64,000 bases of DNA from Escherichia coli. GTDB taxonomy: Bacteria > Pseudomonadota > Gammaproteobacteria > Enterobacterales > Enterobacteriaceae. The notes under the pieces are model-generated. The model worked only from the letters and a program-made list of their open reading frames with translations. It was not told the origin of the DNA and did no database searches. The stretch lies in assembly GCF_024502345.1 (NCBI RefSeq), contig NZ_JALDNN010000001.1; one strand, written 5' to 3'. A program made the translations under genes and the position numbers. Shown here in pieces: positions 20,221-46,333 of this stretch (position 1 is its first letter; each line of letters opens with the position of its first letter).

Positions 20221-21071
20221 ATATTCATAAGGCCTCGCTGCAAAGCGGGGCTTTTTCCTTTTCTGGCTACGGTAGATTTCTGGTCGTTGCGGCACGTTAT
20301 TTGTTTGCTGGATTTCTCGCCATTTTCGCAGTTGTTCGTTACTTTTAGACACCTCAACATCCTTTGATGTACCTTTTCCTAACCTCACAGCTACGGTCTT
20401 TCTACGGTCCTCTACGATTCCTTTCTCTCAGAGCATTCATAATAAAGTAGAAAATACGGGGAAAACGGGGGAATTATCATTTCGCCCTAATCCGCAGGTC
20501 TTAACGTGATTTTGTCGCGGGGAATAAGGTGGGGAAATCCCCAATAGCAAGCGGGGAAATCTGGCAGCATACCCCCTCCACCATTCACATGGGGATCTTC
20601 ACCAGTCCGTCCACCTACAACAAGCTCTTCTTGCCCTTTCACTTCTTACCGTTTTCAGAATCCCCCGTTCTCCACGCCATCATAAAATGATTTATCCGTA
20701 AGCTTAACGTAATGGACTGTTGAACCTGAGTGTCCGCTGTGAGCGAAAAGCGGAACTTCTCACATAGGTAATGAAGCGTTTCCTAACGTCAGGGTGTACT
20801 AATCAACGAAGAGCAGGTCAGAGGACTCGAACCGCTTTCCTCTTCCATCTACGTAGAATTCCAAGAATTTATGTGCTTTCCAGTTACAATTTAGCCATGC
20901 TAAGTTAGAAAAAGCATTGAGTACCTTAGGATTGTATCGATGATACTCTAAGGATCTTGGAGGCTTGTGAGGCGTAAGGTTCAAAGCCAATAGTTTATTA
21001 ATAGTCACACAAGTGGCTCTATTTTTCGCCTACAAACCTATATTTTTCATACAAATAAAAGAAGTGTATTT

Positions 21072-22490
21072 ATGAATACTCAGCAAATTAAGGTTGGCAG
21101 TGTACCTGAAATTATTGAGCTATTACCAAACTCTAGCGAGCAGGCTGATTCTCATCCTTTCATCCTATCGGCAAACAGTGCATGGGGTGAACAGGGAGCA
21201 GAAATATCAATAGAGAGATTACGCCAAAATATCGAGCCTTGGCTAACAGCTCTCTTCCAATCCGAACATTTAAATTTATTGATAGGTGCGGGTTTAAGCA
21301 CGTCTATTCAAATATCGGCTACAGATTCACCTCCAGCTGGAATGGGTTGGATCAGCGATCTAGCCGTATGTAAAAGTGAAATAGATGCATTTTCTACTCT
21401 GGCTGCCAAAGCTGCAGGTCGCGATAACGGAAATATAGAAGATCAAATTAGAGCTATTAATGAACTTATTAAAGGGCTTGAAATTCTGACAGTGTTGAAT
21501 ACCCCTCAACCTGAAAATCCTCCAGCTCCTCATGCTGCTTATAGAAATCTAAAAACGGATTTAGAAATACTCAAGGGAGAGCTTTCTCGCTGCCTAGGTG
21601 AGTTTTCAAGATCTGTGAGTGCCGGAGAATACTTGATTAAAACTGCTGAACCAAAGCGTAAAGAGGAAACTTTCAACTATCTAGTTAGTTTCTTGATGAG
21701 CTTTGCAAGTAGGACCGCTACTCGCGATAGGTTGCATATTTTTACAACAAACTATGATCGCATTATTGAAGTAGGTGCTGAGCTTGCTGGTTTGAGACTT
21801 ATAGATCGCTTTGTAGGAAGTATCGCTCCAGTGTTTCGATCTTCAAGATTGGAGGTTGATTATCACTATAATCCTCCAGGAATTCGTGGCGAACCAAGAT
21901 ATTTAGAAGGCGTAGCGCGTTTTACTAAGCTTCATGGATCCCTTGATTGGCATGAACAAAATAGCGCGATTAGGCGCTTTGGTTTACCTTTTGGAGCACG
22001 TTCTGTTGAACCTTTTTTAGAAGCTGAAGGCCATCAAAGCAACAGCTTTGAACAACTTATGATTTACCCTAACTCAGTAAAAGATAGAGAAACTGCCGAG
22101 TACCCTTATGTTGAGCTATTTCGAGATCTAGCCGCAGCAACTAGCCGCCCAAATAGCACATTAGTCACCTATGGCTATAGCTTTGGTGATGAGCATATCA
22201 ACAGGGTAATTGAAGACATGCTTACAGTGCCTTCGACTCATGTAGTCATAATTGCCTTCGGAGATCCGCTTGGAAGAATCATAAATTTCATTAATAAGAG
22301 TGGAAGAAAAGCACAGATCACCCTATTAATGGGAGACCATTTAGGAGACCTCAAGACTTTAGTTGATAACTATTTACCTAAACCAGCTATTGATAAAGCA
22401 TCAATAAAAATGACTGAATTGCTTAAGCAAAGAGGATTTATCCAGCCCAAAGAATTAGGTAATTCAACTGGCTCCGAGGTATCACAATGA
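21072..22490 (+). CDS. SIR2-like NADase component of a SIR2-HerA anti-phage system
   Basis: 472-aa ORF with SIR2-family motifs GAGLS (in LLIGAGLSTS), TTNYD (in HIFTTNYDRII) and HGS (in TKLHGSLDW); translationally coupled to the downstream HerA-like gene. Confidence 0.8.
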   Translation: MNTQQIKVGSVPEIIELLPNSSEQADSHPFILSANSAWGEQGAEISIERLRQNIEPWLTALFQSEHLNLLIGAGLSTSIQISATDSPPAGMGWISDLAVCKSEIDAFSTLAAKAAGRDNGNIEDQIRAINELIKGLEILTVLNTPQPENPPAPHAAYRNLKTDLEILKGELSRCLGEFSRSVSAGEYLIKTAEPKRKEETFNYLVSFLMSFASRTATRDRLHIFTTNYDRIIEVGAELAGLRLIDRFVGSIAPVFRSSRLEVDYHYNPPGIRGEPRYLEGVARFTKLHGSLDWHEQNSAIRRFGLPFGARSVEPFLEAEGHQSNSFEQLMIYPNSVKDRETAEYPYVELFRDLAAATSRPNSTLVTYGYSFGDEHINRVIEDMLTVPSTHVVIIAFGDPLGRIINFINKSGRKAQITLLMGDHLGDLKTLVDNYLPKPAIDKASIKMTELLKQRGFIQPKELGNSTGSEVSQ

Positions 22491-24520
22491 GTTACTTACC
22501 AATAGAAAGATTAGAACAATTAAGAATTGGATCTGTTGGATTTGTATCACCTAATGAAATTAGAGTTTCTTTAGAGATTGACTCCCCTGATTCAGTGTCA
22601 CTTCAAGGCGGTTCCCCCCGCAATTTTCCTCGAATAAATAGTTATGTACTGATCAGTAGCGATGATGGATTTCTCGTCGGACAGGTTGAATGGATTGCCG
22701 TAGAACACTCTCCATACCCCAAAAGAAGAGGCTTACAAGATTTTGGCTTGATAGATCTTCCTTTTCCACTTAAAAAGCTCAGTATCAATCCCGTTGGTAC
22801 TTTGAGAGTCGATAGAAAAAACGAAGATTACAAGTTCACAAGAGGAACAGATGCTTTTCCCTCGGTTGGTGACTCCGTGCTCCTGCCTACTGACCGGCAA
22901 TTAAAATCAATAATAGAATCAGGTGACAATAGAAGAGTAAAAATAGGGGACAGCCCCCTAGCTAACAATGCGGAAATAAAAGTGGACCCTGATAGGCTTT
23001 TTGGACGACATTTAGCTGTTTTGGGCAATACAGGTAGTGGTAAATCATGCTCGGTTGCGGGGTTAATTCAATGGTCTTTAGATGCTGTTTTACAACAGGG
23101 ACAGATTCCAAATGCTCGGTTCATAATACTTGATCCAAATGGAGAATACAGTAGGGCATTCGGCCCAGAATCAAAATACAAGGGTAAGCTATTACGTGTA
23201 GAAGCTAACACTGGTGCTGAAGAGATAGATCTTAAAGTTCCGTCATGGTTATGGAATAGCTCTGAGTGGGGTGCTTTCACTCAAGCGAGTTCAAAAGTTC
23301 AACTTCCTTTACTACGCCGAGCTTTGAGGGCGATGAGAAATGATGTTTTATCAGAAGATGATGTGACAATCCAAGCGAAACACTTCTGCGGTATCCTACT
23401 CGTATCCATACGACAATTATCAAGCCAAGGCCAGATATATGTGAATGGCGGCCATGCCAAAGGTTTCGTTGATAGTTTAACGTCTTGGAATAATAGCCTG
23501 TCCACATTAAACGACAAAATCGATAACAAACCTTTCGATAATCTAATAAACACGATGAATGTGTATCTTTCCTCTCGTATAGGAATAAAATGGCCTGAAA
23601 AACCTGAAGTTTCAGATACTGATCAGTTGATTAATGAATTAAAAAATGCATATGAAACGCTTGGAGGTGATGAACAAGGACTTCTTCCAAAAAGTGAAGA
23701 TTCGCCTATTCGTTTTAAAGGGGATGATTTTGTCGCATACCTAGAAGCTCTAGCTCAAGAGACAGGCACAGAGCAATTCGTTGAATTCCTTTTGACTCGT
23801 ATTCGAACAATGCTAGGTGACACCCGTATAAGTGCAGTAACAAATGATTCGGAACAGCCTATCAGTTTAACTAATTGGTTAGACACTTTTCTCGGTAGAG
23901 ATGGACAAGGTTCCATAACTGTTATCGATTTATCGCTAGTCCCTAATGAAATAATACATTTGGTAACTGCTGTAATTTCCAGAGTAACTTTTGAAGCATT
24001 ACAACGTTATCGAAGACTTAAGGGGAAACCACTACCAACAGTTATGGTTGCAGAAGAAGCGCATACATTTATTAAACGCTACAAAGAAGATAGTGAGGGT
24101 CAGTCAGTCTCTGACGTATGCTGCAAAGTGTTTGAAAAGATCGCACGTGAAGGCAGGAAATTTGGGTTAGGTCTTGTAGTTTCTTCCCAACGACCCTCAG
24201 AGCTATCTCCGACTGTGTTATCTCAATGTAATACTTTTTTGTTGCACAGGATTAGTAATGATAGAGATCAAGAGCAAGTCCATAGACTTGTTCCCGATAA
24301 CATGAGGGGGTTGTTGAGGGAGTTGCCATCGCTACCATCTCGGCATGCCATTCTACTAGGATGGGCTTCTGAACTTCCGGTTTTAGTTAGAATGAAAGAG
24401 CTTACTGAAAAACAAAGACCACAATCTGACGATCCCGATTTTTGGGATGTGTGGTCTAACACTACAGAAGAGCCTCGCGAAGTTAATTGGCAACCAATAG
24501 CTGATGATTGGCAAAGTTAA
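22487..24520 (+). CDS. HerA-like FtsK/HerA-family ATPase of the SIR2-HerA system
   Basis: 677-aa ORF with Walker A GNTGSGKS, Walker B MVAEEAH and SSQRPSEL region; start overlaps the SIR2 stop (ATGA). Confidence 0.8.
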   Translation: MSYLPIERLEQLRIGSVGFVSPNEIRVSLEIDSPDSVSLQGGSPRNFPRINSYVLISSDDGFLVGQVEWIAVEHSPYPKRRGLQDFGLIDLPFPLKKLSINPVGTLRVDRKNEDYKFTRGTDAFPSVGDSVLLPTDRQLKSIIESGDNRRVKIGDSPLANNAEIKVDPDRLFGRHLAVLGNTGSGKSCSVAGLIQWSLDAVLQQGQIPNARFIILDPNGEYSRAFGPESKYKGKLLRVEANTGAEEIDLKVPSWLWNSSEWGAFTQASSKVQLPLLRRALRAMRNDVLSEDDVTIQAKHFCGILLVSIRQLSSQGQIYVNGGHAKGFVDSLTSWNNSLSTLNDKIDNKPFDNLINTMNVYLSSRIGIKWPEKPEVSDTDQLINELKNAYETLGGDEQGLLPKSEDSPIRFKGDDFVAYLEALAQETGTEQFVEFLLTRIRTMLGDTRISAVTNDSEQPISLTNWLDTFLGRDGQGSITVIDLSLVPNEIIHLVTAVISRVTFEALQRYRRLKGKPLPTVMVAEEAHTFIKRYKEDSEGQSVSDVCCKVFEKIAREGRKFGLGLVVSSQRPSELSPTVLSQCNTFLLHRISNDRDQEQVHRLVPDNMRGLLRELPSLPSRHAILLGWASELPVLVRMKELTEKQRPQSDDPDFWDVWSNTTEEPREVNWQPIADDWQS

Positions 24521-24941
24521 TTAACTTAACTAATTTTTAGTAGTGTTATAAGTAGTGGCTTATATCTGACATGACAGTTTAGGTTAGTAGTTTCAATCTA
24601 ACAGTAAGTGTCCACGGTGACGTTTTCATACTCAAATCTCCTGAAATGTGGGAGATTTGAGTATGGTTGTCCCTTATGAGCGAGGAGCGGAAGTTCTGCT
24701 TTAAGTGTATCAAACCCTCCAGCAAAGATGTTCTTGAATGTAATGCCATAATTTCCCTAACATTCCAGCACAAATCAATTAACTCTCAGTCCATAGTGTA
24801 TTTTACTTAAATTAAAATCAAATACTCTAGGAATTAAAATAACAAGATCACTTGCGATTATGCTATTTTAAATTAATATTTTTGTTTTTACTGGGGAACC
24901 TTCAAAACACGGAGCCAGATTTCTTCGTAGCTACCCTGTTG

Positions 24942-25766
24942 CTAGGGTTTCAAGTATTCCCCTAAAGGAAAGAAATTTTTTGACAACTTTTGGGATTCAG
25001 CAATTTTAACCAAATAAATATAGAATCCCAACAGAGCACTGTTCTCGCTTTCCCCCCTCGAATAGTGAACATGCCCAGGCACCTTCCGGATGAGGAAACC
25101 ATTATTTTTTACCAAATAATACCCTCTATCTAAAATTGTAATTACATCAGGCATATCATCTAAATCGATATTATTTCCAGTCATGTAATTAAACAGCGAA
25201 TCTCGTAAGGTACTTTCCTCTGGACCTTGGAAGGCTAGTAGTAAGAATGGTGTTTTTCTCAAGGTTGCACACATCCCTGAGATTTCCTCTACTAATTGCA
25301 CTGTATTTTGGGGAATATTTTCTTTCATAAAATAACCATCGTCAATACCGATTGGATTGATTCTTACCAAACCTTTTGACCTAACGCAAGCATCTAAGGT
25401 TGTCTTAAGGTTTGAAGCTCCTTCGGTCATTGAGCCAGTGTTTAATGAAGATTTACATTCAATTAACGCTAAAGCTGAATCGACAGGGACCATACACTGA
25501 TCTTTATCATAACTAAGTTTTAAAGAATGTTTCGAGTATATGATAATATCCATCTGACTTGAGAGATTATCCTTAGAGTCAAAAACCTGTCCTGATGTAA
25601 TATCTAAATTACTAGGGAGATTTGCTTTTAAAAATTCCCTTATTACAATTTCTCTAGCACTTCCTTTGCTACTCCCGTTCGTCGTTATGGATGACAAATT
25701 AAATGCTGAAACCAAAGATGCCGTATGGTTTTTTAAGTGTTTCTGGATTAATTTCATAAAGCTCAT
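24942..25766 (-). CDS. hypothetical protein, possible PD-(D/E)xK-like nuclease
   Basis: 274-aa ORF in AT-rich DNA convergent with herA; candidate motifs E (GSAREIVI), D (MDIIIYS) and ExK (ALIECKS); no family assigned with confidence. Confidence 0.5.
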   Translation of the reverse strand: MSFMKLIQKHLKNHTASLVSAFNLSSITTNGSSKGSAREIVIREFLKANLPSNLDITSGQVFDSKDNLSSQMDIIIYSKHSLKLSYDKDQCMVPVDSALALIECKSSLNTGSMTEGASNLKTTLDACVRSKGLVRINPIGIDDGYFMKENIPQNTVQLVEEISGMCATLRKTPFLLLAFQGPEESTLRDSLFNYMTGNNIDLDDMPDVITILDRGYYLVKNNGFLIRKVPGHVHYSRGESENSALLGFYIYLVKIAESQKLSKNFFPLGEYLKP

Positions 25767-26194
25767 TCCATTTTAATTTATCTACATCGCTTAAAGGCAA
25801 ATGATGCCACCGGCTACCAATTAAAAATTATCTCAACCTGAGAGATTTTTCCAGACTCCAAACGAAAATAAAAAACTACTCGTCACGTCCCTCCTGGCAC
25901 ATAGCCGACACCAAAACCAGCAACATATGGACAACGGTCCCTGCCCTGATGGCAGGTAATTGTATCAGACTTAAACACATATTATTTCTGTGAACTCCCC
26001 CCAACGGCAGTCCTTTCCTCTGAAGACCAGAACCAGACCGTAAAGCCTGCTCTTTCTGCATTTCCCGTATTAATTCATACCATGTGGCACCAGCATTCCC
26101 TTCGCCACACCAGAAAATCAATTCCCCAATAAAAAAGTGCCGTGCCGGGGATGGGTCAACCCTGACGTTCTTTACACCAGTCACAGGAGGTTAT

Positions 26195-27379
26195 ATGTCC
26201 ACCCCCAAACGCTTCCGTTTTACTAATCAGCTCATTAAATCCCTGCCCCCTAACACATCCGATGCACGCAGTACCGATGCCGAATACAGCGACACCGAGA
26301 TTTCCGGCCTCAAGTGTCTGGTCAGCAGAAGAGAAGGTCGTAAAAAGTTTTTGCTACGCTACCTTTATCATGGACGAAAACGCGCCATCGCCATTGGTCA
26401 CTGGCCTGAAGTGGACGTCAATCTTGCTCGTCAGATTGCCATAGAACACAAACGTTCCCTTGCCACCGGCACTGACCCTAAGCAGGAGCGTGAAAACAAG
26501 AGAATGGAGCTGACGTTCGATGAACTCTTTAATCAGCATTATCTGCCATGGGCAAAATCCGCTAAACGCAGTTGGGGAAAGGATGTTCAGCGCTACCGCG
26601 ATCATATCCGTCCCGCCATTGGTCAGAGGCTGCTGAGCGATATCACACCAGCGAGCATTCTGCGCCTTCAGCAGACGTTAAGTACTTCCCTGTCAGCAGC
26701 TACCTGTAACCGTGTCATCGTACTCATTAAAGCCGTCTTTACATGGGCCGGAAGGCAAAGCATGACCTCTGTCCATCCGGCAAGGGTGGTACAGCTTCTC
26801 AGGGAGAACAACGCCCGACAGCGCTATTTCACCGAGGACGAAATTCGTCGTATTTTTCTCTCCGCCGATAACGATACCAGCCCCGTCGCGGCCCGCTATG
26901 TCAAACTGTTGTTACTGACCGGCCTTCGTCGTGATGAGCTGCGTCTGGCTAAGTGGGAGCATGTTGACCCGGTTAAACGCACCCTGTGGCTCCCGGAAAC
27001 CAAGAATGGCTATGGGCGGATTGTTCACCTTAACTCACTGGCGATGGACGTAATCAGAACGCTGCCAACGCAGCGGGGAAATCCGTGGTTGTTTATCGGT
27101 AAAAAACAAGGAATGCCGCTGAATAACCCCGTTAAAGCCTTTCAGCGTATCGTTCGTCGGGCGGGAATTTTCGACCAGGAAGTGTGTATTCATACCTGCC
27201 GCCATTCGGTTGCCGCCCTCATCGTGTCCTACGGCGGAACACTGTATGACGTTCAGGCTCAACTGGGGCACCGCAGCAGTCAGTCTTCACAACGTTATGC
27301 GCATCTTCACCCTCAGCGCTTACAAAACACCAGTCAGTTACTGGCGGAAAGGATAACGGCTCAGCTACCGTCCTTGTGA
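26195..27379 (+). CDS. tyrosine-type site-specific integrase
   Basis: 394-aa ORF from ATG 26195 preceded by AGGAGG; catalytic boxes TGLRRDELRLAKWEHVD and HTCRHSVAAL...LGHRSSQSSQRYAHL (R, HxxR, Y). Confidence 0.85.
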   Translation: MSTPKRFRFTNQLIKSLPPNTSDARSTDAEYSDTEISGLKCLVSRREGRKKFLLRYLYHGRKRAIAIGHWPEVDVNLARQIAIEHKRSLATGTDPKQERENKRMELTFDELFNQHYLPWAKSAKRSWGKDVQRYRDHIRPAIGQRLLSDITPASILRLQQTLSTSLSAATCNRVIVLIKAVFTWAGRQSMTSVHPARVVQLLRENNARQRYFTEDEIRRIFLSADNDTSPVAARYVKLLLLTGLRRDELRLAKWEHVDPVKRTLWLPETKNGYGRIVHLNSLAMDVIRTLPTQRGNPWLFIGKKQGMPLNNPVKAFQRIVRRAGIFDQEVCIHTCRHSVAALIVSYGGTLYDVQAQLGHRSSQSSQRYAHLHPQRLQNTSQLLAERITAQLPSL

Positions 27380-27434
27380 TAACAGAAAAGCAGAGGCAAG
27401 TGCCCCTGCTTTTTTTTTACTGTTCAGCCATCAG

Positions 27435-27791
27435 TCAGAACGGGATGGCCCCATATTCTTCATCCGGCACCCGGTTATCATCAAATCTGTTATAGAGTTC
27501 ACGAGCACACTCGCGCGCGTCTTTAATAGACATACGAGGGAACCTGCCGAGGGGTTCATAATAGCAGGCCCCTTCAAGCGTATAACGAGCCAGGAATTTA
27601 ATCTCACCGTTGGCAATGACGGCCCGGAGCGCAGGCTCGCTGCCATCGAAGATTTCACGAGAAATGCCGTGATAAAGGCACTCCGCCAGTGTGTTAACCA
27701 GAGCGTAATCATTGAATGAGGTTTTTTCTTCATTTTCGCTGCTGATAGCGTGAGGAAAACCGTCATAGTACTGGTCTGATTCAAAAATCAT
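27435..27791 (-). CDS. hypothetical protein
   Basis: 118-aa ORF directly downstream of and co-oriented with the DUF927-like gene. Confidence 0.45.
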   Translation of the reverse strand: MIFESDQYYDGFPHAISSENEEKTSFNDYALVNTLAECLYHGISREIFDGSEPALRAVIANGEIKFLARYTLEGACYYEPLGRFPRMSIKDARECARELYNRFDDNRVPDEEYGAIPF

Positions 27792-27840
27792 ACATCACCT
27801 TCTATTGGTTGTTATTCAGTCAAAATGGTTTTATTCAGGG

Positions 27841-29769
27841 TTAAAATTCGGTCATCACATTGCATTTCAGAAACGCTTTTTTGACCTGGTAGTAAGACTG
27901 CGCCATCGTCTTCAGCGCTCTTTTTTTATAGTGTCCGGCACTTTCGCCAAGCAGATAACCGGAACGCTCTAACGGTCTGGCCACATCAACGGTCTTAAGT
28001 CCCTTTTCAGAACAGAGCTTTTCAAACACCGATTCATAAATCAGGAAGTCGCCGGTTTTGTAATGGACGAATCCCCACATATCTCCCGGGCATCGGGCAT
28101 GTTCGTCACGCAGGGTGATAAAGTGCCTGCTGCTTTTTGTCACCAGCGTCAGCTGAAGCTCCTCCAGCATGTTACGCACCGGGTTATACTGATTCTGGTT
28201 ATCATCCAGCCAGCGTCGTGCAGCGGACATAACGGATTCAGCCACCGCATCGCTTTCGAAAGGTAAAAGGCCATATTTCAGCGCCTTCTCTCCTGCCAGC
28301 CATACCAGCGCAAATCTTTTCAGTCCGCGCCGCTGAACGCGGGTAATATCACGCCCCTCATCCCTCAGGGCCTCTTCCAGTGCGTTACAGCAATCATCTG
28401 TCTGTTCCTGGAGCCAGGATGAAAACTCTGCGTAGGTGCGAAGACCGCCAGCCGTATTTTTCCCGGATAACAGTTTGCCGATAAATGCAGGCCCGGCATG
28501 ACCATAAGCCTCTGCCAGCCCCGTCTTCAGTGCATCTGCACGGGCACGTGTTTCTGATACCGGTTCATCCGGTTTTTGAGCATCCTCAGGCAACAGTTCC
28601 ATACTGATGGCCCTGTGCTCCTGCCCTCCCTGTAACACGGCTTTCTGTTCAGCCAGCTTTTCGGAGATTGACATCTCACCGGTGGAGAGAATAAACATGC
28701 GCCATTTAAACGGCTCATCTGCCGTCAGGCCACGGTTCAGGCGCTCTTTTGCCGTACCTGACGTAATGTTGTAAAGCAGTGAGGAAAGTTGCTTATGATT
28801 ACTCGCACCCAGTTCATCGACGCAGGCGACCAGACCGGAATAGTCAGCGAGAAGGCGCTCCATCGCGTTAGGCGTGGTATTCCAGCGAATAATATTTACA
28901 TTCCCCCCACTACCCGGCTCGCTGCCATCACCATGGACCGATGCAGCCAGCATCAGGAGAAGCGTTTTACCGGTGGTGGATACGCCGTGAAAATGAAACA
29001 TGCCCACATCCATACCGGCAGGAACCAGAAGCATCGAAGCAAAGGACGCACTCAGTGCAAAGGTCTGCGCCCAGCCATGGACATTTTCCCGGATGAGGTT
29101 AATCCACTCCTCCAGGGCCCCACCTTTGTGCAGTCCGGGACGCACGCGGAATCCCGGCAGTAGATAATCAAACCCGGTCAGAGAGGTCACAACGGGCTCA
29201 TGACCATGTAAAAAGGCCATATCCTCCGAAACGAATCCCATCGCATCTGCCATCAGATAGACAGGCAGCGGTAAACTCCGGCAGCGCTGAAGAAAACGGT
29301 CAAAAAGGGCAAACTGCTGTGGAGAGGAGCCAACACAAAATCCACGATCTGCCAGTTTGCCTACTACCTGAGCACCGCTCTGAACAATATCCTCAAAGCG
29401 TACCAGGGCCTTAACATACTTACCCAGCCCGTTACCGGTCATCAGGCTGATCCCAAGACCGGACTCCTTATCTTTTCCACAAAACAGGGCGACAGGCACA
29501 ACTGGCGTGGTGCAAACCTGCACAGGTTTCTGTCCACCGATGTAGAAAAGGCCATTAGCCGTATTCACATAATGCCGTGGCAGCCCATCACCAATACCGA
29601 GTGAAGCGATATCATCTTCACCGACCTCAGTGTTTTCAGCACGCCTGATAATTGCTTCCGACATTTTGTTGAAATTTTTATCGCGGTCAGCAAAAGCGCG
29701 AATACGCTTAATCCCGGAAACCTTAGGAACATTAGTTGTCACTTTTTTATTCATGTGTATTACCATCAA
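27841..29769 (-). CDS. DUF927-type P-loop NTPase, putative replication initiation (primase/helicase-like) protein of an integrative element
   Basis: 642-aa ORF with Walker A GVSTTGKT and Walker B-like VACVDELG; co-oriented immediately downstream of an integrase gene. Confidence 0.6.
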   Translation of the reverse strand: MMVIHMNKKVTTNVPKVSGIKRIRAFADRDKNFNKMSEAIIRRAENTEVGEDDIASLGIGDGLPRHYVNTANGLFYIGGQKPVQVCTTPVVPVALFCGKDKESGLGISLMTGNGLGKYVKALVRFEDIVQSGAQVVGKLADRGFCVGSSPQQFALFDRFLQRCRSLPLPVYLMADAMGFVSEDMAFLHGHEPVVTSLTGFDYLLPGFRVRPGLHKGGALEEWINLIRENVHGWAQTFALSASFASMLLVPAGMDVGMFHFHGVSTTGKTLLLMLAASVHGDGSEPGSGGNVNIIRWNTTPNAMERLLADYSGLVACVDELGASNHKQLSSLLYNITSGTAKERLNRGLTADEPFKWRMFILSTGEMSISEKLAEQKAVLQGGQEHRAISMELLPEDAQKPDEPVSETRARADALKTGLAEAYGHAGPAFIGKLLSGKNTAGGLRTYAEFSSWLQEQTDDCCNALEEALRDEGRDITRVQRRGLKRFALVWLAGEKALKYGLLPFESDAVAESVMSAARRWLDDNQNQYNPVRNMLEELQLTLVTKSSRHFITLRDEHARCPGDMWGFVHYKTGDFLIYESVFEKLCSEKGLKTVDVARPLERSGYLLGESAGHYKKRALKTMAQSYYQVKKAFLKCNVMTEF

Positions 29770-29838
29770 ATTACGCCACCGTCAGAAAACGGGTGCATCA
29801 GAACCATAGTTAAAAACCATACCGTTGAGTGAAGGTTG

Positions 29839-31251
29839 TTACCCCATCGCCCGGTTAACGACTTCGTGGTAACGCGCCGGGGAAGCGTGCAAGTAAAGCT
29901 CCGTTACTTTGATAGTGCTGTGACCCAATAAGTCTTTGACGGTGTGAATGTCGGCCCCGCTCTCAATGAGCTTTGTCGCAAAGGTATGACGCATCTCATG
30001 GATGGTGAACGGTGGAATACCCGCAGCCTCACAAAGTCGTTTTTGCAGGCGACGCGGCTCAGCAACCGGATTGTCGGTTCCCTTGCCCGGAAATACCCAG
30101 CCTTCATCACCCAGATGCTGACGCTGTTCTGTCAGAAGAACGAAAGCCTTATCACATACCGGTACACGGCGTAGTTTGCCGTTTTTGGTATGGCGAAGGG
30201 TGATAACCTTGCGGCTCCAGTCCACATCTTCAAGACGAAGGTGACGGGTTTCCCCCAGACGCAGCCCCGTCAGGGCAAGGAACATGAGAAGAGCAAGGGC
30301 TTCATGATCGGGTTTACCATTACGCCAGCGCTCACAGACGTCCATCCAGCGCTGAAGCTGGGAGTCATCCATGGCACGGCGATCTGACGTCACTTCAGGC
30401 AGCGCTTTGATATAAAGCGCCGGAGAGCGGCTGATGTATCCCATGCGTATAGCCCAGGTAAACACCGCTTTAATGAGCGCCAGATGGCGGTTGCGGGTGG
30501 CAGGCTTGAGATCGAGATTATGCAGATAGCTCAGAATATCTGCCTCCGTCATACCTGCCAGCTTTTTGTCACCGAGAAGAGGGCGCAGGTATTTACGGAT
30601 CTTAGAAAGGTCGGTGTTAGCTGAACGCTTAACGCCCGTGCTGAGTACGCTTTTCTCATACTCATCCACAAGCTCATTAAACGTCATTTTACTGTGAGTA
30701 AGAAAACGCTCACCGTAAGCCTCAACGGCGGTCTTGAGCTCCTGAATTATTTTAAAGGCATGCTCCCTTGCATCTTTAATTGAAATTTCCGGGTAGCCTC
30801 CTACGGCAACGTAGATATTCTTTCCGCGAATACTTTTGCGGACAATAAATTTAATGCGACCTGATGGATAGAATATTGCCTTAAGTCCGGTTAACTTCTT
30901 ATCGCTGGTCTCGATTGTTTGTGCAGCTTGTACTGCACGGATTTTATATTCATCAAAAAGGGCTTTAGTAAAAACACCTCCAGTATTTTTAGGTGCAACC
31001 CCTGGATATTCTACAACATCAGATACTCCAGAGTCGGAATACCCCTGAGCTTCCACATCTACATTGAAGGAATTTTTATGAGCAGCTGTGATGCTCTTTT
31101 CATCCAGCACTTGCGTTATTTTATTTAAAGGGTAATTAACTTTCATAATATGTACATGGTCCTCTGAAAATTCAGATGATAATGAGTAATTTAATATGTC
31201 GGCCAACAATGGGATAAGCTTATTTATTCGTGGCATCACTTTCAAGCCCAT
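29839..31251 (-). CDS. tyrosine-type site-specific integrase
   Basis: ORF with catalytic boxes ALTGLRLGETRHLRLEDVD and HEMRHTFATKLIESGADIHTVKDLLGHSTIKVTELYLH; true start codon uncertain. Confidence 0.85.
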   Translation of the reverse strand: MGLKVMPRINKLIPLLADILNYSLSSEFSEDHVHIMKVNYPLNKITQVLDEKSITAAHKNSFNVDVEAQGYSDSGVSDVVEYPGVAPKNTGGVFTKALFDEYKIRAVQAAQTIETSDKKLTGLKAIFYPSGRIKFIVRKSIRGKNIYVAVGGYPEISIKDAREHAFKIIQELKTAVEAYGERFLTHSKMTFNELVDEYEKSVLSTGVKRSANTDLSKIRKYLRPLLGDKKLAGMTEADILSYLHNLDLKPATRNRHLALIKAVFTWAIRMGYISRSPALYIKALPEVTSDRRAMDDSQLQRWMDVCERWRNGKPDHEALALLMFLALTGLRLGETRHLRLEDVDWSRKVITLRHTKNGKLRRVPVCDKAFVLLTEQRQHLGDEGWVFPGKGTDNPVAEPRRLQKRLCEAAGIPPFTIHEMRHTFATKLIESGADIHTVKDLLGHSTIKVTELYLHASPARYHEVVNRAMG

Positions 31252-31423
31252 GAAAAATCAGCTCTTACATGCCCATTGACATTTAATACTCAAGTCAGAA
31301 AGACCATGATGATTCATCAGGAGTACTCCTGCTCAGGGAAAAGGGAAAATAGCGTTAAACCCTATAAAAAAATTGTGTTCCGGATGCATCGCCCAAAGTA
31401 AGTCAACTTTTGAGGCCCTGAAG

Positions 31424-32468
31424 GGCTTTGTTGAATAAATCAGATTTCGGGTAAGTCTCCCCCGTAGCGGGTTGTGTTTTCAGGCAATACGCACGCTTTC
31501 AGGCATACCTGCTTTCGTCATTTTGTTCAGCGCTCGTACCAGGGCCATAGCCTCCGCAACCTGACCATCGTAGTCACGCAGCGTCAGTGAACCCCCGAAC
31601 AGCTGTTTTACCCGGTACATCGCCGTTTCCGCTATCGAGCGACGGTTGTAATCTGTTGTCCATTTCCACCGCGCATTACGCTGATTAGCCACTGCACGGT
31701 TACGGTCTGCATATTCACCGGGCCAGTAACCCGCACCTTTTCGGGGAGGGATAAGCGCGCTGATTTTCTTACGCCGCAGTTCATCGTGACAGAGCCGGGT
31801 GTCGTAAGCGCCGTCTGCCGATGCTGCCCTGATTTTTCTGTGAGTCTGCCGGATAAGACCCGGGAAGGCTTCTGAGTCCGTCACATTGTTCAGCGACAGG
31901 TCAGCGCAGATGATTTCATGTGTTTTACTGTCAACGGCGAGATGCAGCTTACGCCAGATACGGCGGCGTTCCTGGCCATGCTTTTTGACTTTCCACTCGC
32001 CTTCACCGAAGACCTTCAGCCCGGTGGAATCAATTACCAGGTGTGCGATTTCACCCCGGGTGGGCGTTTTGAAACTGACGTTAACCGACTTTGCCCGCCT
32101 GCTGACACAGCTGTAATCCGGGCAGCGTAGCGGAACGTTCATCAGAGAAAAAATGGAATCAATAAAGCCCTGCGCAGCGCGCAGGGTCAGCCTGAATACG
32201 CGTTTAATGACCAGCACAGTCGTGATGGCAAGGTCAGAATAGCGCTGAGGTCTGCCTCGTGAAGAAGGTGTTGCTGACTCATACCAGGCCTGAATAGCTT
32301 CATTATCCAGCCAGAAAGTTATGGAGCCACGGTTGATGAGGGCTTTATTGTAGGTGGGCCAGTTGGTGATTTTGAACTTTTGCTTTGCCACGGAACGGTC
32401 TGCGTTGTCGGGAAGATACGTGATCTGATCCTTCAACTCAGCAAAAGTTCGATTTATTCAACAAAGCC
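31424..32468 (-). mobile_element. IS5-family, IS903-group insertion sequence
   Basis: 18-bp terminal inverted repeats GGCTTTGTTGAATAAATC at 31424..31441 and 32451..32468, flanked by a 9-bp direct duplication GCCCTGAAG (31415..31423 and 32469..32477). Confidence 0.9.
31480..32436 (-). CDS. IS903-group transposase (DDE)
   Basis: 318-aa ORF filling the IS; C-terminal segment DGAYDTRLCHDELRRKKISALIPPRKGAGYWPGEYADRNRAVANQR recalled as IS903-type transposase. Confidence 0.85.
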   Translation of the reverse strand: MKDQITYLPDNADRSVAKQKFKITNWPTYNKALINRGSITFWLDNEAIQAWYESATPSSRGRPQRYSDLAITTVLVIKRVFRLTLRAAQGFIDSIFSLMNVPLRCPDYSCVSRRAKSVNVSFKTPTRGEIAHLVIDSTGLKVFGEGEWKVKKHGQERRRIWRKLHLAVDSKTHEIICADLSLNNVTDSEAFPGLIRQTHRKIRAASADGAYDTRLCHDELRRKKISALIPPRKGAGYWPGEYADRNRAVANQRNARWKWTTDYNRRSIAETAMYRVKQLFGGSLTLRDYDGQVAEAMALVRALNKMTKAGMPESVRIA

Positions 32469-32799
32469 GCCCTGAAGTAAGAAAATGGTAATAGACCCCA
32501 CCGATTTTCGACTAAAAAACAACCCAATAAGGCATTTAAAATTAATGCTATTTAAATCAATAGATTAAAGTGATGATTTTGACAATATGCAGCCCAACTT
32601 AAGGGTAAATCAACCTTTCAACAATCAAAACCACACTCCATTAATTTTTATTATTGTGACAATCATCACATTTTACACCTGCGGGTGCTTTGATTTTGTA
32701 CATTCACAAAGCTCACCAACCCCAACGACTATGAACGTAAAAAACCTCTTTTTATGCACATATTATTTCCATGTAAATCAATTCATTATGGAGATAATC

Positions 32800-33153
32800 A
32801 TGTTCAAGCTCACGACACCCACCAGTCTTCCCCTTCTCAAACTGTCCGCCTCCGCGCTGGAAGCCCTCAGCAATGAAATCCTTGGCCCCGTCGATGATAT
32901 CGACCTGTTTACCGCCTTCTGGAACGAAACGGAAACCCTGCTCTGGCATCTCAACCATGATGACACGCTGCCCGAAGACCCGCTGCTGGCAGTTGCACTG
33001 GCTAACCCGGAATACGTCACCGCACTTGATGATGGCTGGTATCTGCTTCTCGGTATCGTCTGTGATAACGGACAGGGTATCTATCTGGTATTCCCGGACA
33101 CGACCATTATCACTCAACTCCAGAACCTGATTGAGGCGCTGAACCATGAGTAA
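32800..33153 (+). CDS. hypothetical acidic protein (gene 1 of the four-gene cassette)
   Basis: 117-aa ORF from ATG 32800 preceded by GGAGA; rich in D/E; stop overlaps the next gene start by 8 nt. Confidence 0.55.
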   Translation: MFKLTTPTSLPLLKLSASALEALSNEILGPVDDIDLFTAFWNETETLLWHLNHDDTLPEDPLLAVALANPEYVTALDDGWYLLLGIVCDNGQGIYLVFPDTTIITQLQNLIEALNHE

Positions 33154-33577
33154 GAAAAAAATCGCTACCGAAGCCGCCGTCATCGAAAGCTATACCGTGT
33201 TCTACAGGGGTGAAGCCGAGAAAATCAGTCCCCACAGTAAGGGTCTGCTGACGTATGAGTTGGGTAAAGAGGGTGAAACCGGAAGCCTTGCCCTGCGCTT
33301 AACCGCCAATGGCGAAGGGGGGCTGTTCTCCCGTGAATGGATAGCGCTTGATGCGATTCACGCCATTCTTGAACAACAGCAGGACAGTTTCCCGTCCCGG
33401 GTATTCCGCCCGCTGTTTGGTCAGGGCAGCACCAACAACGCCGGGTTTCTTGCCGCTGTACTGAGAAGCCCGGATATCTGTCTTATCGAGGCGGACAGCA
33501 GCAGACTCTTTATGCACCGCTGCTACGCCGACTGGCCGCATCGTATGACGCAGCTTGCCGCACTCAGCCAGGACTAA
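33146..33577 (+). CDS. hypothetical protein (gene 2 of the four-gene cassette)
   Basis: 143-aa ORF MSKKKIATEAAVIESYTVFYRGEAEK, translationally coupled to gene 1. Confidence 0.55.
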   Translation: MSKKKIATEAAVIESYTVFYRGEAEKISPHSKGLLTYELGKEGETGSLALRLTANGEGGLFSREWIALDAIHAILEQQQDSFPSRVFRPLFGQGSTNNAGFLAAVLRSPDICLIEADSSRLFMHRCYADWPHRMTQLAALSQD

Positions 33578-33623
33578 TCCCCACTTTTTCTGTGTTCCAT
33601 ACCCCTTAAAAAGGAAATTCACT

Positions 33624-34052
33624 ATGTCATCACCCGCTATATTGCAGGGCGGCTATGTGCTGCCTCTCTCCCGGTCGTTCACCCAACTGCTTCTGGATAT
33701 CCTCGCGCAAAAACCGCCTCATCGTCACCCCATCACCGGATTAACCATTAACTTCCGTGACCCTGAATACTCACCGGAAAAGGGCGGCTGGCATCCGGTC
33801 GAAATACGCCTCATCCCTGCCGGAGAAGACTGGCAGCTCGATTACGTCACCGATTTTCACTATGCAGGACATCCATGGCCTGAGCTTGAAAAAGATGTCG
33901 ATGTGAGCTGGACGCAACAATACACGTGGCTTTCCCGTTGTGGCGATATCTCTCATGTCGACGCCCGTGAGTTCTGGTCGCTATGGGAAAGTAACTTTAT
34001 GGCTTACCACGATATGGGGGTTTTCACGGTCCGTACGTTGTGGGAAAGCTGA
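33624..34052 (+). CDS. hypothetical protein (gene 3 of the four-gene cassette)
   Basis: 142-aa ORF from ATG 33624 (MSSPAILQGGYVLPLSRS), 46 bp after gene 2. Confidence 0.55.
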   Translation: MSSPAILQGGYVLPLSRSFTQLLLDILAQKPPHRHPITGLTINFRDPEYSPEKGGWHPVEIRLIPAGEDWQLDYVTDFHYAGHPWPELEKDVDVSWTQQYTWLSRCGDISHVDAREFWSLWESNFMAYHDMGVFTVRTLWES

Positions 34053-34110
34053 GTGTTCACTACGTTTCCCCCGCATCCCCCCTCTCCCCCATAGTAAGGA
34101 ACTGAATGTT

Positions 34111-34575
34111 ATGTACCGGCTTCTGCTGCTTAACTTCGTGGATTCATTTATCGATAACTGCATTCTGTCCTGCGTCGATGAACCGGCTTACGGCGGTATC
34201 GTGCAGTGCGAACTGCTTTTTGGCCTTGCCGCACACAGCGGTATCTATGTGGGTAACGGCGATATTGTTCATCTTGATGGCGATGGAACCGTTATCAAAA
34301 GTAAGGCTAAAGGTTTTCTTGACCGGCTCGATGGCTGGAACTCCGCTATCTCGGTGTATACCGACTGTATGGATTTGACGCCTCAGGGTTGTGCGCGGGC
34401 CGCTGAACGGGCAAAGGCGGCAGTGGGTCAGCGCTATCCTTATAGCCTGCTCGACTTTAACTGCCACCGGTTTACTGCCCGCTGCGTTACCGGCGATTCG
34501 TGCCCTGATATCTGGCTTGCCAGACACCTCGATACATTTCAGAAAGGGGACCGATGGCGCGTATGGCAACGATGA
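34111..34575 (+). CDS. LRAT/HRASLS-like papain-fold enzyme (gene 4 of the four-gene cassette)
   Basis: 154-aa ORF with AAHSGIYVGNGDIVHL (His42, His54) and DFNCHRF (Cys118), matching the LRAT-family His-His-Cys arrangement and NCEHF-type motif. Confidence 0.65.
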   Translation: MYRLLLLNFVDSFIDNCILSCVDEPAYGGIVQCELLFGLAAHSGIYVGNGDIVHLDGDGTVIKSKAKGFLDRLDGWNSAISVYTDCMDLTPQGCARAAERAKAAVGQRYPYSLLDFNCHRFTARCVTGDSCPDIWLARHLDTFQKGDRWRVWQR

Positions 34576-34793
34576 AAGCCAGCCGTTGCAGGCAACGTGT
34601 CACCGGACAGGGAGAACGGCTTATCCGGCTGACCATGGTGCTGTTTTACGGTCAGACAATATCTGTTCGCTACATCATCCGGCAGTTTGACGTGTCTCCC
34701 CGCACAGCAAGACGGGACCTCGCTCAACTGGCCTTTGTGCTGGAATCCGCTGGCCCTCACCTCTGGCGACTGGCTCCCTCGCTGAAACCCTGA
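34554..34793 (+). CDS. small HTH protein or N-terminal fragment of a WYL-type regulator
   Basis: 79-aa ORF with HTH-like segment TISVRYIIRQFDVSPRTARRDLAQL, resembling the N-terminus of the WYL regulator at 36249; overlaps the end of the LRAT-like gene in another frame. Confidence 0.4.
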   Translation: MARMATMKASRCRQRVTGQGERLIRLTMVLFYGQTISVRYIIRQFDVSPRTARRDLAQLAFVLESAGPHLWRLAPSLKP

Positions 34794-34867
34794 CTTTTTT
34801 CTCTGCCGGACATCTCCTGACCACCCCGTATGGCAGGCTGTCTCCGCTTTTCAATCCATAAGGGAAC

Positions 34868-35254
34868 ATGATGAAAATTTCTAAACTGTTAACCGCCACA
34901 CTTCTGCTTTCAGCCTTCAGCCACAGCGCATTTGCCGACGAGCAGGCTGACGCTCAGATGATAACCAACTCGACCTTCTGTGCGATGTACTCCACCCGCC
35001 TGACCCAGACCAGTGACAGCGGCCTTCAGGTAAAAGGCGTCAATCTCAATGCCCGCATCAACGGACCGGTATTCAACAGGGTACTTCAGGTGATGAACAA
35101 AACCTATGGCAGAACCTGGCTCGAATCAAATGCCCGTAACGGCAGCATGACCGCCATGCAGCTTTCGCAGTCGGAGCTGCTTTATAACCCGGAATATGCC
35201 CGGCAGTGCGATGCCTTTGCGGATAAAGTGGAAAAGGAATGGCGCGGAAAGTAA
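34868..35254 (+). CDS. hypothetical secreted protein
   Basis: 128-aa ORF with N-terminal signal peptide MMKISKLLTATLLLSAFSHSAFA; followed by a terminator. Confidence 0.6.
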   Translation: MMKISKLLTATLLLSAFSHSAFADEQADAQMITNSTFCAMYSTRLTQTSDSGLQVKGVNLNARINGPVFNRVLQVMNKTYGRTWLESNARNGSMTAMQLSQSELLYNPEYARQCDAFADKVEKEWRGK

Positions 35255-35287
35255 TCCCGACGCGTTATACCTCCATCCGGTGAACAG

Positions 35288-35314
35288 AAACCTGCTTTCG
35301 GGCAGGTTTTTTTT
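35288..35314 (+). terminator. rho-independent terminator
   Basis: AAACCTGC-TTTCG-GGCAGGTTT hairpin followed by a T run. Confidence 0.8.
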
Positions 35315-35396
35315 ACTTTTTTATTTTTCAGGCGGACAAACCCTGTCCGGGGGCTTCCTTAAACTGTCAGGTCCAATATCTGCAATGAGGTGAAAT

Positions 35397-36146
35397 ATGG
35401 CTACCTACCGACACGACCCTGATCTTGAATTTCTGCGCCACTGCCATCGTGACGATCTGGATTTACTGGTTTCTGTGCTTATCTGCGATCCGAAAGACGG
35501 ACTGGCACGCATCACGGAAACGCTGACCTATGATCCTCAGTATAAAAAACACAAGCCCAACCACCCGCGCTACTGGGATGCCATTGCCGCCGAGGTTCAG
35601 ACGTTTGGGGCGAACAGCTTTGCCACGCTGCTCCGCTGGGGTAAAGGGGTGCTGTACCGGGAAATTCTCACCGATGCCTGCGATAAAATGAAGGTGAACT
35701 ACAACAACAAATCCAGTGTTGAAACCATTGAAATGAATCTGCTGATGAAGATCCTGGAGAAAAGTCTTGAGAAGATGACGCCTGACCAGCTAAAGACCGT
35801 GGCGGAAGAATTGCAGACAGGCTACAGCAACCCCACGCCGGAGTTGCTGACCATGGCAATCCAGGCGGGGATAAAAACATCCGGGTTTGCGGCCTATCAG
35901 ATGGCACTTGTTGTCACAAATGGTGTGGCGAAAGCCCTGTTAGGCAGAGGGCTGACCGTTGCAGGAAATGCCATGCTGACGCGTACCATGGGCGCTTTTG
36001 CCGGTCCCGTGGGCTGGGTGCTCAGTTCTCTCTGGCTGCTGATTGATTTAGCCGGTCCCGCATACCGGGTGACGCTACCATCCTGCATTTTTATTGCCTA
36101 CATGCGCCAGAAGCATCTTTATTCACCTGAGAATACTGACGTTTAG
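35397..36146 (+). CDS. YaaW-like protein (UPF0174/DUF3944 family)
   Basis: 249-aa ORF; N-terminal DLEFLRHC and C-terminal GPVGW...AYRVTLP segments resemble E. coli YaaW as I recall it. Confidence 0.55.
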   Translation: MATYRHDPDLEFLRHCHRDDLDLLVSVLICDPKDGLARITETLTYDPQYKKHKPNHPRYWDAIAAEVQTFGANSFATLLRWGKGVLYREILTDACDKMKVNYNNKSSVETIEMNLLMKILEKSLEKMTPDQLKTVAEELQTGYSNPTPELLTMAIQAGIKTSGFAAYQMALVVTNGVAKALLGRGLTVAGNAMLTRTMGAFAGPVGWVLSSLWLLIDLAGPAYRVTLPSCIFIAYMRQKHLYSPENTDV

Positions 36147-36248
36147 CACTTACATTTAAGGTATTCAGACTTTAAAAAACTTCAGAGGGCGGACAAATCC
36201 TGTCCGCTACTGCTGGCATCATTTCCCGGCTAAATTCGGAAATGATGT

Positions 36249-36962
36249 ATGACGCTGATAACACAAGAAAACGAACATGACAGACTGGCAACCCGCCTTT
36301 CCATCATCCTGAGCCGTTTGTTTCAGGGTGAAAAGCTGCATATCGGGACGCTGGCAGAAGAATTTGGAGTGACGACGCGAACGCTGCGACGGGATTTCAA
36401 CGTCCGTCTGACCTACCTTGATATTGAACAGAGCAACGGCGTGTATCAGCTTGCCTCACATTACTTTCGTCGCCGCACGGAACGGGATATGAAGATACTG
36501 GCGAGGTTGCTGCATCTTGACCGTCTGTTACCCGCGATGGATGCCAAACTACTGAGCCTGATGCTTGACGGGGAACGTCCCTCGCCATACAGGATTATGC
36601 TACCGGAGCCGCGCCAGAAACCCACCCTTTTCGGTGATTTCAGCAGACTGACGCTCGCCATACTTAACCAGACCCAGGTGCGTATCAGAACCGACGAAAA
36701 CGTCAGCCATACCGTTCATCCCTACCGTCTGCTTTGCAGCCATGCGGAGTGGTTTCTTGCCGGATGTACGTCATCGGGCGTGTTCGTTATTTCCCTGTCC
36801 CGAATCAGGCTGGTTGAGGTATTACCGGATACAACGTTTGAGATCGATAACACACTCATTTCGCTGATTGAACAGTCTGACTTTATGGAAGCCTTACCCC
36901 ACATGAACATTATTCATCAGATAATGCATTACGGGAGTAAACAGACGAATAATCGTAATTAA
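36249..36962 (+). CDS. WYL-domain transcriptional regulator (BrxR/CapW-like)
   Basis: 237-aa ORF with N-terminal HTH (HIGTLAEEFGVTTRTLRRDF) and WYL-type motif (HPYRLLCSHAEWFLAGC); sits upstream of restriction genes. Confidence 0.7.
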   Translation: MTLITQENEHDRLATRLSIILSRLFQGEKLHIGTLAEEFGVTTRTLRRDFNVRLTYLDIEQSNGVYQLASHYFRRRTERDMKILARLLHLDRLLPAMDAKLLSLMLDGERPSPYRIMLPEPRQKPTLFGDFSRLTLAILNQTQVRIRTDENVSHTVHPYRLLCSHAEWFLAGCTSSGVFVISLSRIRLVEVLPDTTFEIDNTLISLIEQSDFMEALPHMNIIHQIMHYGSKQTNNRN

Positions 36963-37002
36963 AATCACAACATATTATTAGTGATGATTAAATCACATTA
37001 AC

Positions 37003-37332
37003 ATGATAAGTGAGAAAGTTATGATTATCGATAAAGAATACGCACTTGTAAATGCAACAGCAAGACTTAACACTGACCTGAGGGATTATGAATATGAAAT
37101 AAACAACGCCGCCATCATAACATTTGGCAATGACCTCATTGAGGTAATCGTATATCAGTTCAGCTTTGTCATCAGCATCAGGGCAGAGGGTGAAAAAATA
37201 AAGCACGGCCTACTTGTTAACTTCGGTAAAAATATAGCAAGACAGGTTTCATCACTTTGTGCATCCGCAATGCGAGTCTACCCGAATGAAAAACACAAAC
37301 CGAGCCGTCAGCTTTTCCATTGCATAAATTAG
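37003..37332 (+). CDS. hypothetical protein
   Basis: 109-aa AT-rich ORF between the WYL regulator and the type IV restriction gene; may be non-coding. Confidence 0.3.
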   Translation: MISEKVMIIDKEYALVNATARLNTDLRDYEYEINNAAIITFGNDLIEVIVYQFSFVISIRAEGEKIKHGLLVNFGKNIARQVSSLCASAMRVYPNEKHKPSRQLFHCIN

Positions 37333-46319: not shown

Positions 46320-46333
46320 AATTCATATCAACG

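Follow-up and report, generated by a model that had tools for sequence, protein, structure and literature searches.

The four-gene core and its surroundings

The DNA described here is a 64,000-nucleotide stretch of Escherichia coli contig NZ_JALDNN010000001.1 (assembly GCF_024502345.1), referred to below as the window, and our subject is a group of four genes within it. A tyrosine recombinase gene, int395 (26195..27379, + strand), converges with a minus-strand operon in which a second tyrosine recombinase gene, int470 (29839..31251), is followed by a gene for a DUF927 helicase (27841..29754) and by Arm118 (27435..27791), a small gene for a putative stand-alone arm-type DNA-binding domain of an integrase. 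A first-pass annotation made from the sequence of 27435..31423 had already given the coordinates, strands, and sizes of these open reading frames (ORFs) correctly (118, 642, and 470 aa on the minus strand, with the convergent integrase at 26195..27379). The four genes lie inside an island of 26.1 kb (about 25.0 kb without an IS903 copy) with the 3′ end of tRNA-Phe at both borders. They probably make up an intact core for mobility and replication in a family of tRNA-Phe defense islands that have the backbone of pipolins without the gene piPolB.

The helicase ORF (27841..29769, – strand) encodes 642 aa from a TTG codon at 29769, and the RefSeq start at ATG 29754 gives 637 aa. The Walker A motif reported from the translation lies within FHGVSTTGKT, and the proposed DUF927 type was borne out by Pfam (PF06048, 7e-34; 118.2 bits against a cut-off of 22.6). 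Only two sequences in the PDB matched, 5DGK (1e-14) and 8TCH (7e-12). When the AlphaFold2 (AF2) model (pLDDT 88) was searched with Foldseek, the best matches were the same two structures, Cch of the staphylococcal cassette chromosome SCCmec (5DGK, E = 3e-23) and Rep of the Staphylococcus aureus pathogenicity island SaPIbov1 (8TCH, E = 7e-20), aligned over approximately 593 columns and followed by subunits of minichromosome maintenance (MCM) proteins. The PHROG match was “DNA primase/helicase” (1e-41). The C-terminal winged-helix domain of Cch (HTH_56) scored 21.6 bits against a cut-off of 26.2, and the fold alignment extends to the C-terminus; the nearest NCBIfam model, SCCmec replicative helicase Cch1, was far under its cut-off. 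Residues K263 (Walker A), D313 (Walker B), E360, and R381 are invariant in 39 homologs, and E314 is kept in at least 90%. Within an allele, dN/dS of the helicase is 0.12–0.20, indicating ordinary purifying selection. Judged by sequence and modeled fold, the 642-aa protein belongs to the replicative DUF927 family rather than to another class of ATPase, as the first-pass annotation had supposed, and it can be described as a Cch/SaPI-Rep-type, MCM-like helicase with the three-domain fold of that group.

Cch of SCCmec and SaPI Rep share with this protein the Pfam family, the full-length fold, both Walker motifs and the arginine in conserved form, and a gene position adjoining the recombinase of an integrative element. 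However, sequence identity to them is only 15–18%, and the host here is Gram-negative. The partner recombinases are of the tyrosine type, in contrast to the serine type (ccrAB), and the window helicase is without an adjacent gene for a primase, CCPol, or single-stranded DNA-binding protein. SCC elements have ccr serine recombinases and rlmH (orfX) as target, whereas the island has tyrosine recombinases and tRNA-Phe, which places it outside that class. No relative of the helicase above 31% identity was found in plasmid and phage collections, and none at all in IMG/VR. More distant relatives with DUF927 occur as annotated genes of small plasmids, most of which are non-mobilizable.

Arm118 is identified by a Pfam match to Arm-DNA-bind_3 that lies under the cut-off (1e-4), by 40% identity over 52 aa to the arm domain of int470, and by fold: the top three PDB matches of its AF2 model (pLDDT 75) in Foldseek are arm-binding domains of P4-like integrases. 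The protein also has a conserved N-terminal extension of about 45 aa. Homologs of 113–116 aa with the conserved extension occupy the same place in two other helicase alleles, and, of six helicase lineages examined, three have an Arm gene and three do not. Values of dN/dS for Arm118 were 0.34–0.45, with 1.3 in one short comparison, indicating weaker constraint than on the helicase.

Both tyrosine recombinases retain the R…HxxR…H…Y catalytic pattern, as read from their translations, and both match Phage_integrase (5e-32 for int470 and 3e-23 for int395). The int395 protein is of the IntSXT/P4 type (Pfam Arm-DNA-bind_3, Phage_int_M, and Phage_integrase), is 46% identical over 387 aa to IntSXT of the E. 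coli H10407 pipolin (E = 1e-106), and has a dN/dS of 0.03–0.10. It is likely the tRNA-Phe integrase of the island, because it is an ortholog of IntSXT and because the heptamer CTACGGT is kept in relatives at +46, +170, and +181 from the left attachment site (attL). The 470-aa ORF of int470 has its RefSeq start at 31146 (435 aa), and its first 94 or so codons are not conserved in more distant relatives. Its protein is 28% identical to the second pipolin integrase, IntP2 (E = 5e-42), and 26% identical to IntSXT. Membership of GMT islands was considered for int470 and rejected, the match to GmtY (E = 6e-4) scoring 19 bits against a cut-off of 340. Between the convergent int395 and Arm118 genes, an inverted repeat with 19-nt arms followed by a T-run (27380..27419) gives a terminator-like match, and this hairpin is likely a bidirectional terminator.

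Island borders are marked by a perfect pair of 50-bp direct repeats, attL (20172..20221) and attR (46271..46320). The repeat consists of the last 49 nt of tRNA-Phe plus one base, both copies are identical, and its 25-nt core has two matches in the window against none expected. These repeats place the four-gene module within the 26.1-kb island. The integration target is a tRNA-Phe (GAA) gene found with ARAGORN (20145..20220, + strand) with dsbD-yjdC upstream; the flank at 12619-20409 matches the dsbD-yjdC-pheU region of E. coli CP100970 at 98.5% identity, and the insertion site is therefore pheU. In E. coli MB15, the island is at pheV and carries no insertion sequence (IS); window positions 25942-31422 align to it at 98.2%, and near-identical islands occupy both pheV and pheU in E. 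coli. The E. coli defense-hotspot paper does not mention tRNA-Phe sites by name. Beside attL, in the conserved left arm (20267..20418, + strand), lie candidate arm-type integrase sites: CTACGGT at 20267, 20391, and 20402 and CTACGAT at 20412, the last three spaced 10–11 bp apart. The CTACGGT offsets are kept in 11 related loci, in relatives with int395 at least 84% identical, but not in the attL arm of a variant with int395 82% identical.

The first-pass annotation had placed the module as a small element nested in the island. A search for attachment repeats around 26.0–31.4 kb yielded one pair only, an 18-nt match at 25971 and 32752. This pair was rejected as a nested att site: its 13-nt exact core is at chance level for 44 kb, and six related loci lack the right copy. 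The conserved left copy may be an operator. The motif ACACATATTATTTCTGTG at 25975-25992, with CACA…TGTG symmetry, lies about 220 bp upstream of int395 and is kept in most relatives, including the diverged loci L002 and L008. This motif may serve int395 as an operator or promoter element.

An insertion sequence of the IS903 group (IS5 family) lies at 31424..32468 (– strand), and the end noted at 31424 in the first-pass annotation was confirmed by direct reading. Assignment to the group follows from the ends (GGCTTTGTTGAATAAATC / GATTTATTCAACAAAGCC), a DDE transposase (NCBIfam transpos_IS5_2, NF033579; 8e-106, 354 bits), and a 9-bp target site duplication (TSD), GCCCTGAAG, at 31415-31423 and 32469-32477. 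The element had been taken to cut off the upstream part of the module. However, MB15 is colinear across the site without the IS, and the alignment resumes at 32469 with an overlap of 8–9 bp. Together with the intact TSD, this indicates a simple insertion between int470 and orf117, the first gene of the plus-strand backbone, with nothing cut off. The copy is 1045 bp long, its alignment to a related copy in the Citrobacter locus L008 has 1057 columns at 82% identity, and it may carry a small internal deletion. Its longest transposase ORF begins with TTG.

The IS splits an AT-rich divergent region between int470 and orf117 (31252..32799) that contains 21-nt inverted repeats (32567-32587 / 32652-32672). 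This region could serve as an operator or an origin. A scan for promoter and terminator consensus sequences was uninformative, with fewer promoter-like matches than in shuffled sequences.

Conserved order and exchange of the helicase cassette

Gene order around the core is conserved across relatives: tRNA-Phe, variable genes, int (+), Arm (–, where present), DUF927 (–), int (–), orf117 through orf103, variable genes, and attR. The same order is found in relatives with helicase identities of 59, 46, and 43% (E. coli, Enterobacter, and Citrobacter), and the convergent arrangement of int (+) with Arm, DUF927, and int (–), plus about nine genes, is kept in at least 10 genera of Enterobacterales. 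In every locus where the tRNA or its 3′ end was captured, the site is tRNA-Phe. A scan with one genome per species placed the helicase lineage in eight loci, all from Enterobacterales (three Enterobacter, Buttiauxella, Kluyvera, Mixta, Pseudocitrobacter, and Citrobacter). Six of the eight were re-examined, leaving aside a 1.6-kb Mixta contig that holds the helicase gene only and the Citrobacter locus, which is L008 and had already been seen; all six have the same architecture, and four include the tRNA-Phe gene. Searching with the backbone gene orf143 added Edwardsiella, Pantoea, and one metagenomic contig, all with the same layout. Because the order is kept in many genomes and dN/dS is 0.12–0.28 for the helicase and int470, these ORFs are real genes rather than chance reading frames.

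Among 5426 complete E. coli genomes, int395 was found in 133. The right-hand backbone was also matched in 133, with at least 80% of the query covered in 112. The window allele of the helicase is present in 73 of these genomes and a second allele in 41; alleles C and D had no match in RefSeq complete E. coli genomes. Helicase genes from different genera can be 95–96% identical, and the island is found at both pheV and pheU, which together indicate recent horizontal transfer and site-specific integration.

Comparison of related loci indicates that the helicase is exchanged as a cassette. Pairwise comparison yielded at least five helicase alleles at 43–59% identity, whereas in the same loci int395 is 81–100% and orf143 77–99% identical. 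In loci L017 (Pseudocitrobacter) and L019 (E. coli ETEC6), the DNA is 94–99% identical to the window on both sides of a swapped block, and identity is lost only from about 27417-27447 to 29844, which corresponds exactly to Arm and helicase. In the Enterobacter locus L005, the replaced block extends to 32756, taking in the control region and int470 as well. Since the swap boundaries differ between genomes, the exchange is attributed to homologous recombination in conserved flanks. Replacement of Arm together with the helicase suggests that the two genes are functionally linked.

Kinship to pipolins and proposed working of the island

Pipolins have been described as bimodular defense islands with two recombinases, and “piPolB-less, pipolin-like islands” were mentioned in passing (PMC11551731). 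In this 2024 paper, the gammaproteobacterial pipolin core comprises piPolB, IntSXT, IntP2 with an excisionase, DUF2787, WYL, and orphan genes (PMC11551731). We compared the pipolin of E. coli H10407 (at tRNA-Leu) with the window in both directions. Counting both integrases, eight backbone genes match this pipolin at 26–55% identity. After the control region, the island has a conserved backbone of nine plus-strand genes (32800..37332), identified by Pfam and pipolin homologs. Orphan pipolin genes have counterparts in orf117 (32800..33153, 38% identity), orf143 (33146..33577, 55%), and the 103-aa gene orf103 (approximately 37021..37332, 43%). DUF2787 (ending at 34052) is 46% identical to its pipolin counterpart, the small DeoR-like (DeoR79) helix-turn-helix (HTH) gene (34554..34793) 38%, and HTH-WYL (36249..36962) 32%. 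The other three, LRAT (ending at 34575), orf128 (34868..35254), and YaaW/DUF3944 (35397..36146), have no counterpart in the H10407 pipolin, and neither does the helicase.

The features shared with pipolins extend beyond these genes. Both kinds of island insert at the 3′ end of a tRNA gene with long direct repeats, the tRNA being Phe here instead of Leu. Both have two tyrosine recombinases, of which one is of the IntSXT type and near the att site, and in each the operon of the second recombinase continues with a replication gene, a predicted one in the island. Both also have a variable module rich in type I restriction-modification (RM), DUF262, and other defense genes, and lack transfer genes. 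Homologs of orf143 form two groups, one of 143 aa that is always linked to DUF927 and another of about 176 aa that is associated with piPolB at the pgsA tRNA-Leu site.

The hallmark of pipolins is piPolB, and in the island a DUF927 helicase, accompanied in some alleles by the stand-alone arm domain, stands in its place. A tblastn search with H10407 piPolB (866 aa) gave no match in the window at E ≤ 1e-3, and no PolB domain was found in the Pfam-scanned ORFs of the island, the type I RM genes being checked with PADLOC only. The pipolin HTH_17 excisionase (xis) and hyp212 also have no counterpart in the window. The pipolin operon IntP2-xis-hyp-piPolB compares with int470-helicase-Arm. The island further differs from pipolins in its extra backbone genes (LRAT, orf128, and YaaW) and in its second cargo slot, which lies between attL and int395. 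As it lacks the hallmark gene, we do not file the island as a pipolin; on shared gene content and homology, it is a sister of pipolins with a different predicted replication module.

A working model can be proposed from these similarities. The int395 integrase would recombine the 50-bp att sites through the CTACGGT arm sites beside attL, mediating excision and integration. SaPI Reps are self-loading initiator-helicases that read iterons just downstream of their own gene (PMC9371898); the island helicase may likewise self-load at an origin and, with host primase and polymerase, replicate the excised circle. Arm118 could bind arm-type DNA and modulate recombination directionality or the way in which replication is coupled to the att region. 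Induction would be gated by the WYL and DeoR-like regulators. Since the island has no transfer genes, its transfer is proposed to occur by hitch-hiking. Two cargo slots, one at each end, would carry exchangeable anti-phage systems. The IS903 insertion in the divergent promoter region may alter expression of the int470-helicase-Arm operon, although nothing was deleted.

Several observations weigh against this model or against the kinship with pipolins. The gene order differs from that of pipolins, with the integrase-helicase operon inverted and placed between IntSXT and orf117. Equating int470 with IntP2 would draw mainly on operon position, as its protein is hardly closer to IntP2 than to IntSXT. 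The helicase is not accompanied by a gene for a primase or polymerase. In a search directly 3′ of the helicase for an origin of the SaPI type, which has 6–12 short iterons about an AT-rich stretch, covering the window allele and four loci with two other alleles, k-mer counts were not clearly above shuffled controls, and scans of the module for repeats and tandem repeats gave weak pairs only, with no convincing iterons. The attP-type junction pattern had no match in metagenome contigs, an uninformative test; a match would also have been ambiguous, as tandem islands give the same junction. Finally, the conserved DUF927 gene of MGIVchHai6 is dispensable for excision, mobilization, and integration (PMC7449626), and by analogy the DUF927 gene of the island need not be its replicase. 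Like the island, MGIVchHai6 and MGIVflInd1 are integrative, their conserved DUF927 gene shares an operon with functions for recombination directionality, and they carry RM and defense cargo. However, they are found at trmE or yicC, rely on IncC or SXT helpers via AcaCD/SetCD boxes and mobI, and have a single integrase with Xis, whereas the island is at tRNA-Phe and the DUF927 proteins are only distantly related.

Three other explanations were weighed. The first-pass annotation had read the module as the remnant of a small satellite-like element (integrase plus Rep), nested in a larger island and truncated by IS903. In its favor, phage-inducible chromosomal islands (PICIs) and P4-like satellites are built around an integrase and a replication gene placed after it, SaPI Rep is a homolog of the helicase, and an IS adjoins the module. 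This layout is shared by the island and phage satellites (P4-like, PICI/cfPICI, and PLE), but it is non-diagnostic, as many elements have it. All four genes are intact and 97–100% identical to copies in other genomes, the IS903 TSD is intact with colinear sequence beyond it, and the genuine att repeats bound the whole 26-kb island and not the module, whose position is the same in every relative examined. Searches of all core proteins against Pfam, NCBIfam, and PHROGs revealed no genes for capsids, packaging, or hijacking and none of the AlpA type; there was no IMG/VR relative, and matches to phage records were all below 31% identity. A degraded satellite is therefore very improbable, and what survives of that interpretation is an integrase-replication module belonging to a mobile, defense-linked element. 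The module might instead be a fixed composite, in which int470-helicase(-Arm) is a separate small element, parasite or partner, with a set site beside int395 where different versions replace one another. It does have its own recombinase and replication gene, helicase alleles only 43–59% identical occur within backbones that are 94–99% identical, and the pipolin paper suggests that IntP2, the second integrase, was acquired secondarily (PMC11551731). The boundaries vary between L017/L019 (27447-29844) and the larger block of L005, which homologous recombination explains better than site-specific insertion does; moreover, the unit has no flanking repeats and no family member was seen without it, and we regard this explanation as improbable.

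Another proposal is that helicase and Arm act not in replication of the island but as an interference or conflict module against a helper or competing element, which would account for their fast evolution. The dispensability for mobilization of the conserved DUF927 genes in MGIVchHai6 and MGIVflInd1 points in this direction, as do the much greater divergence of the cassette compared to its neighbors, the failure to find an origin or primase, and the dedication of the rest of the island to defense. Nevertheless, PADLOC gave no match for the helicase or Arm, the closest characterized homologs are replication initiator-helicases, and the distant relatives are plasmid genes. Rep specificity is known to vary among SaPI replicons too (PMC9371898), and selection within an allele is of the ordinary purifying kind. 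An interference role is accordingly considered unlikely, and a mobility and replication core remains our preferred reading.

If that reading holds, the family bears on how these islands are classified. Pipolins are now defined by piPolB, and a sister family that keeps the chassis with a replicative-helicase homolog in the same operon slot would argue for a role of that slot in replicating the excised element, and for the chassis rather than the polymerase as the unit of evolution. An element type can now be assigned to tRNA-Phe islands that would otherwise look integrase-only. We tentatively suggest, as an idea that could well prove wrong, that pipolins and the tRNA-Phe family form the two branches of a single superfamily of hitch-hiking defense islands whose chassis accepts interchangeable replication modules (PolB or an MCM-like helicase). 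Under the same tentative proposal, helicase and Arm would be an exchanged specificity cassette, which may be a replicon or incompatibility determinant, and the Arm-only protein would be a new accessory factor tying arm-type att DNA to directionality or to the start of replication. This raises a tractable puzzle, namely what lies behind the wholesale replacement of the helicase, and of Arm in alleles that have it, among islands that are otherwise identical.

Cargo slots and adjoining regions

Cargo slot 1 (20483..25941) is variable. In the window, PADLOC identified SIR2 (21072..22490, +; 3e-154) and HerA (22487..24520, +; 2e-252) genes, and a gene for a DUF6602/PD-DExK NucC-like protein (24942..25766, –; PD_DExK, 6e-27). 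The latter adjoins SIR2-HerA and could be either a third component of that system or a single-gene system of its own. The contents of slot 1 in relatives are PDC-M01/PtuA-like genes, another SIR2-HerA pair, a dCTP deaminase, a HEC-07-like gene, or unknown genes.

Cargo slot 2 (37394..45993, +) begins with a DUF262/HEC-05 gene (37394..39271; PADLOC HEC-05, 4e-231), followed by a type I RM system consisting of hsdM (39475..41031; MTase_I), hsdS (41028..42200; Specificity_I), and hsdR (42317..45433; REase_I). Although hsdM and hsdR are 98% identical to their counterparts, hsdS is only 66% (MB15) and 34% (ETEC6) identical, which fits shuffling of target-recognition domains within an otherwise identical RM system. 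Between hsdR and attR, a repeat scan identified a 114-aa ORF (45649..45993, +) with six 16-aa repeats, KDDRLRTIATFDGKTL, encoded by a 48-bp tandem array (5.5 copies, 87% matches). This ORF is absent from MB15 at the corresponding position.

The predictable positions of the two slots could be used for mining defense systems. GMT islands and the core defense hotspots (cDHS) of P. aeruginosa also have a minimal conserved core, dynamic defense cargo, and no transfer machinery of their own. However, their core genes differ from those of the island, and the only link is the sub-threshold match between int470 and GmtY.

Parts of the island are also found elsewhere. The last 434 bp of its HTH-WYL gene are present on E. 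coli plasmids NZ_CP026578.2 and NZ_CP158189.1 at 99.5% identity, adjoining ISKpn26, a hint that ISs may carry fragments of the island to plasmids.

Directly after attR, the region 46517-52600 contains a P4-type integrase gene (421 aa, with strong matches to the three integrase Pfam domains), followed by genes for a 499-aa membrane protein and a 246-aa outer-membrane-like protein and by IS fragments. This region resembles a second island placed in tandem at the tRNA-Phe site, although the window contains no third att copy. In E. coli CP100970 (L003), a left arm of the window type with CTACGGT lies beyond the right-hand att of an island carrying helicase allele C. This left arm, after the second att, is 93% identical to window positions 20172-20758, suggesting tandem accretion or the remnant of a second island from the same family.

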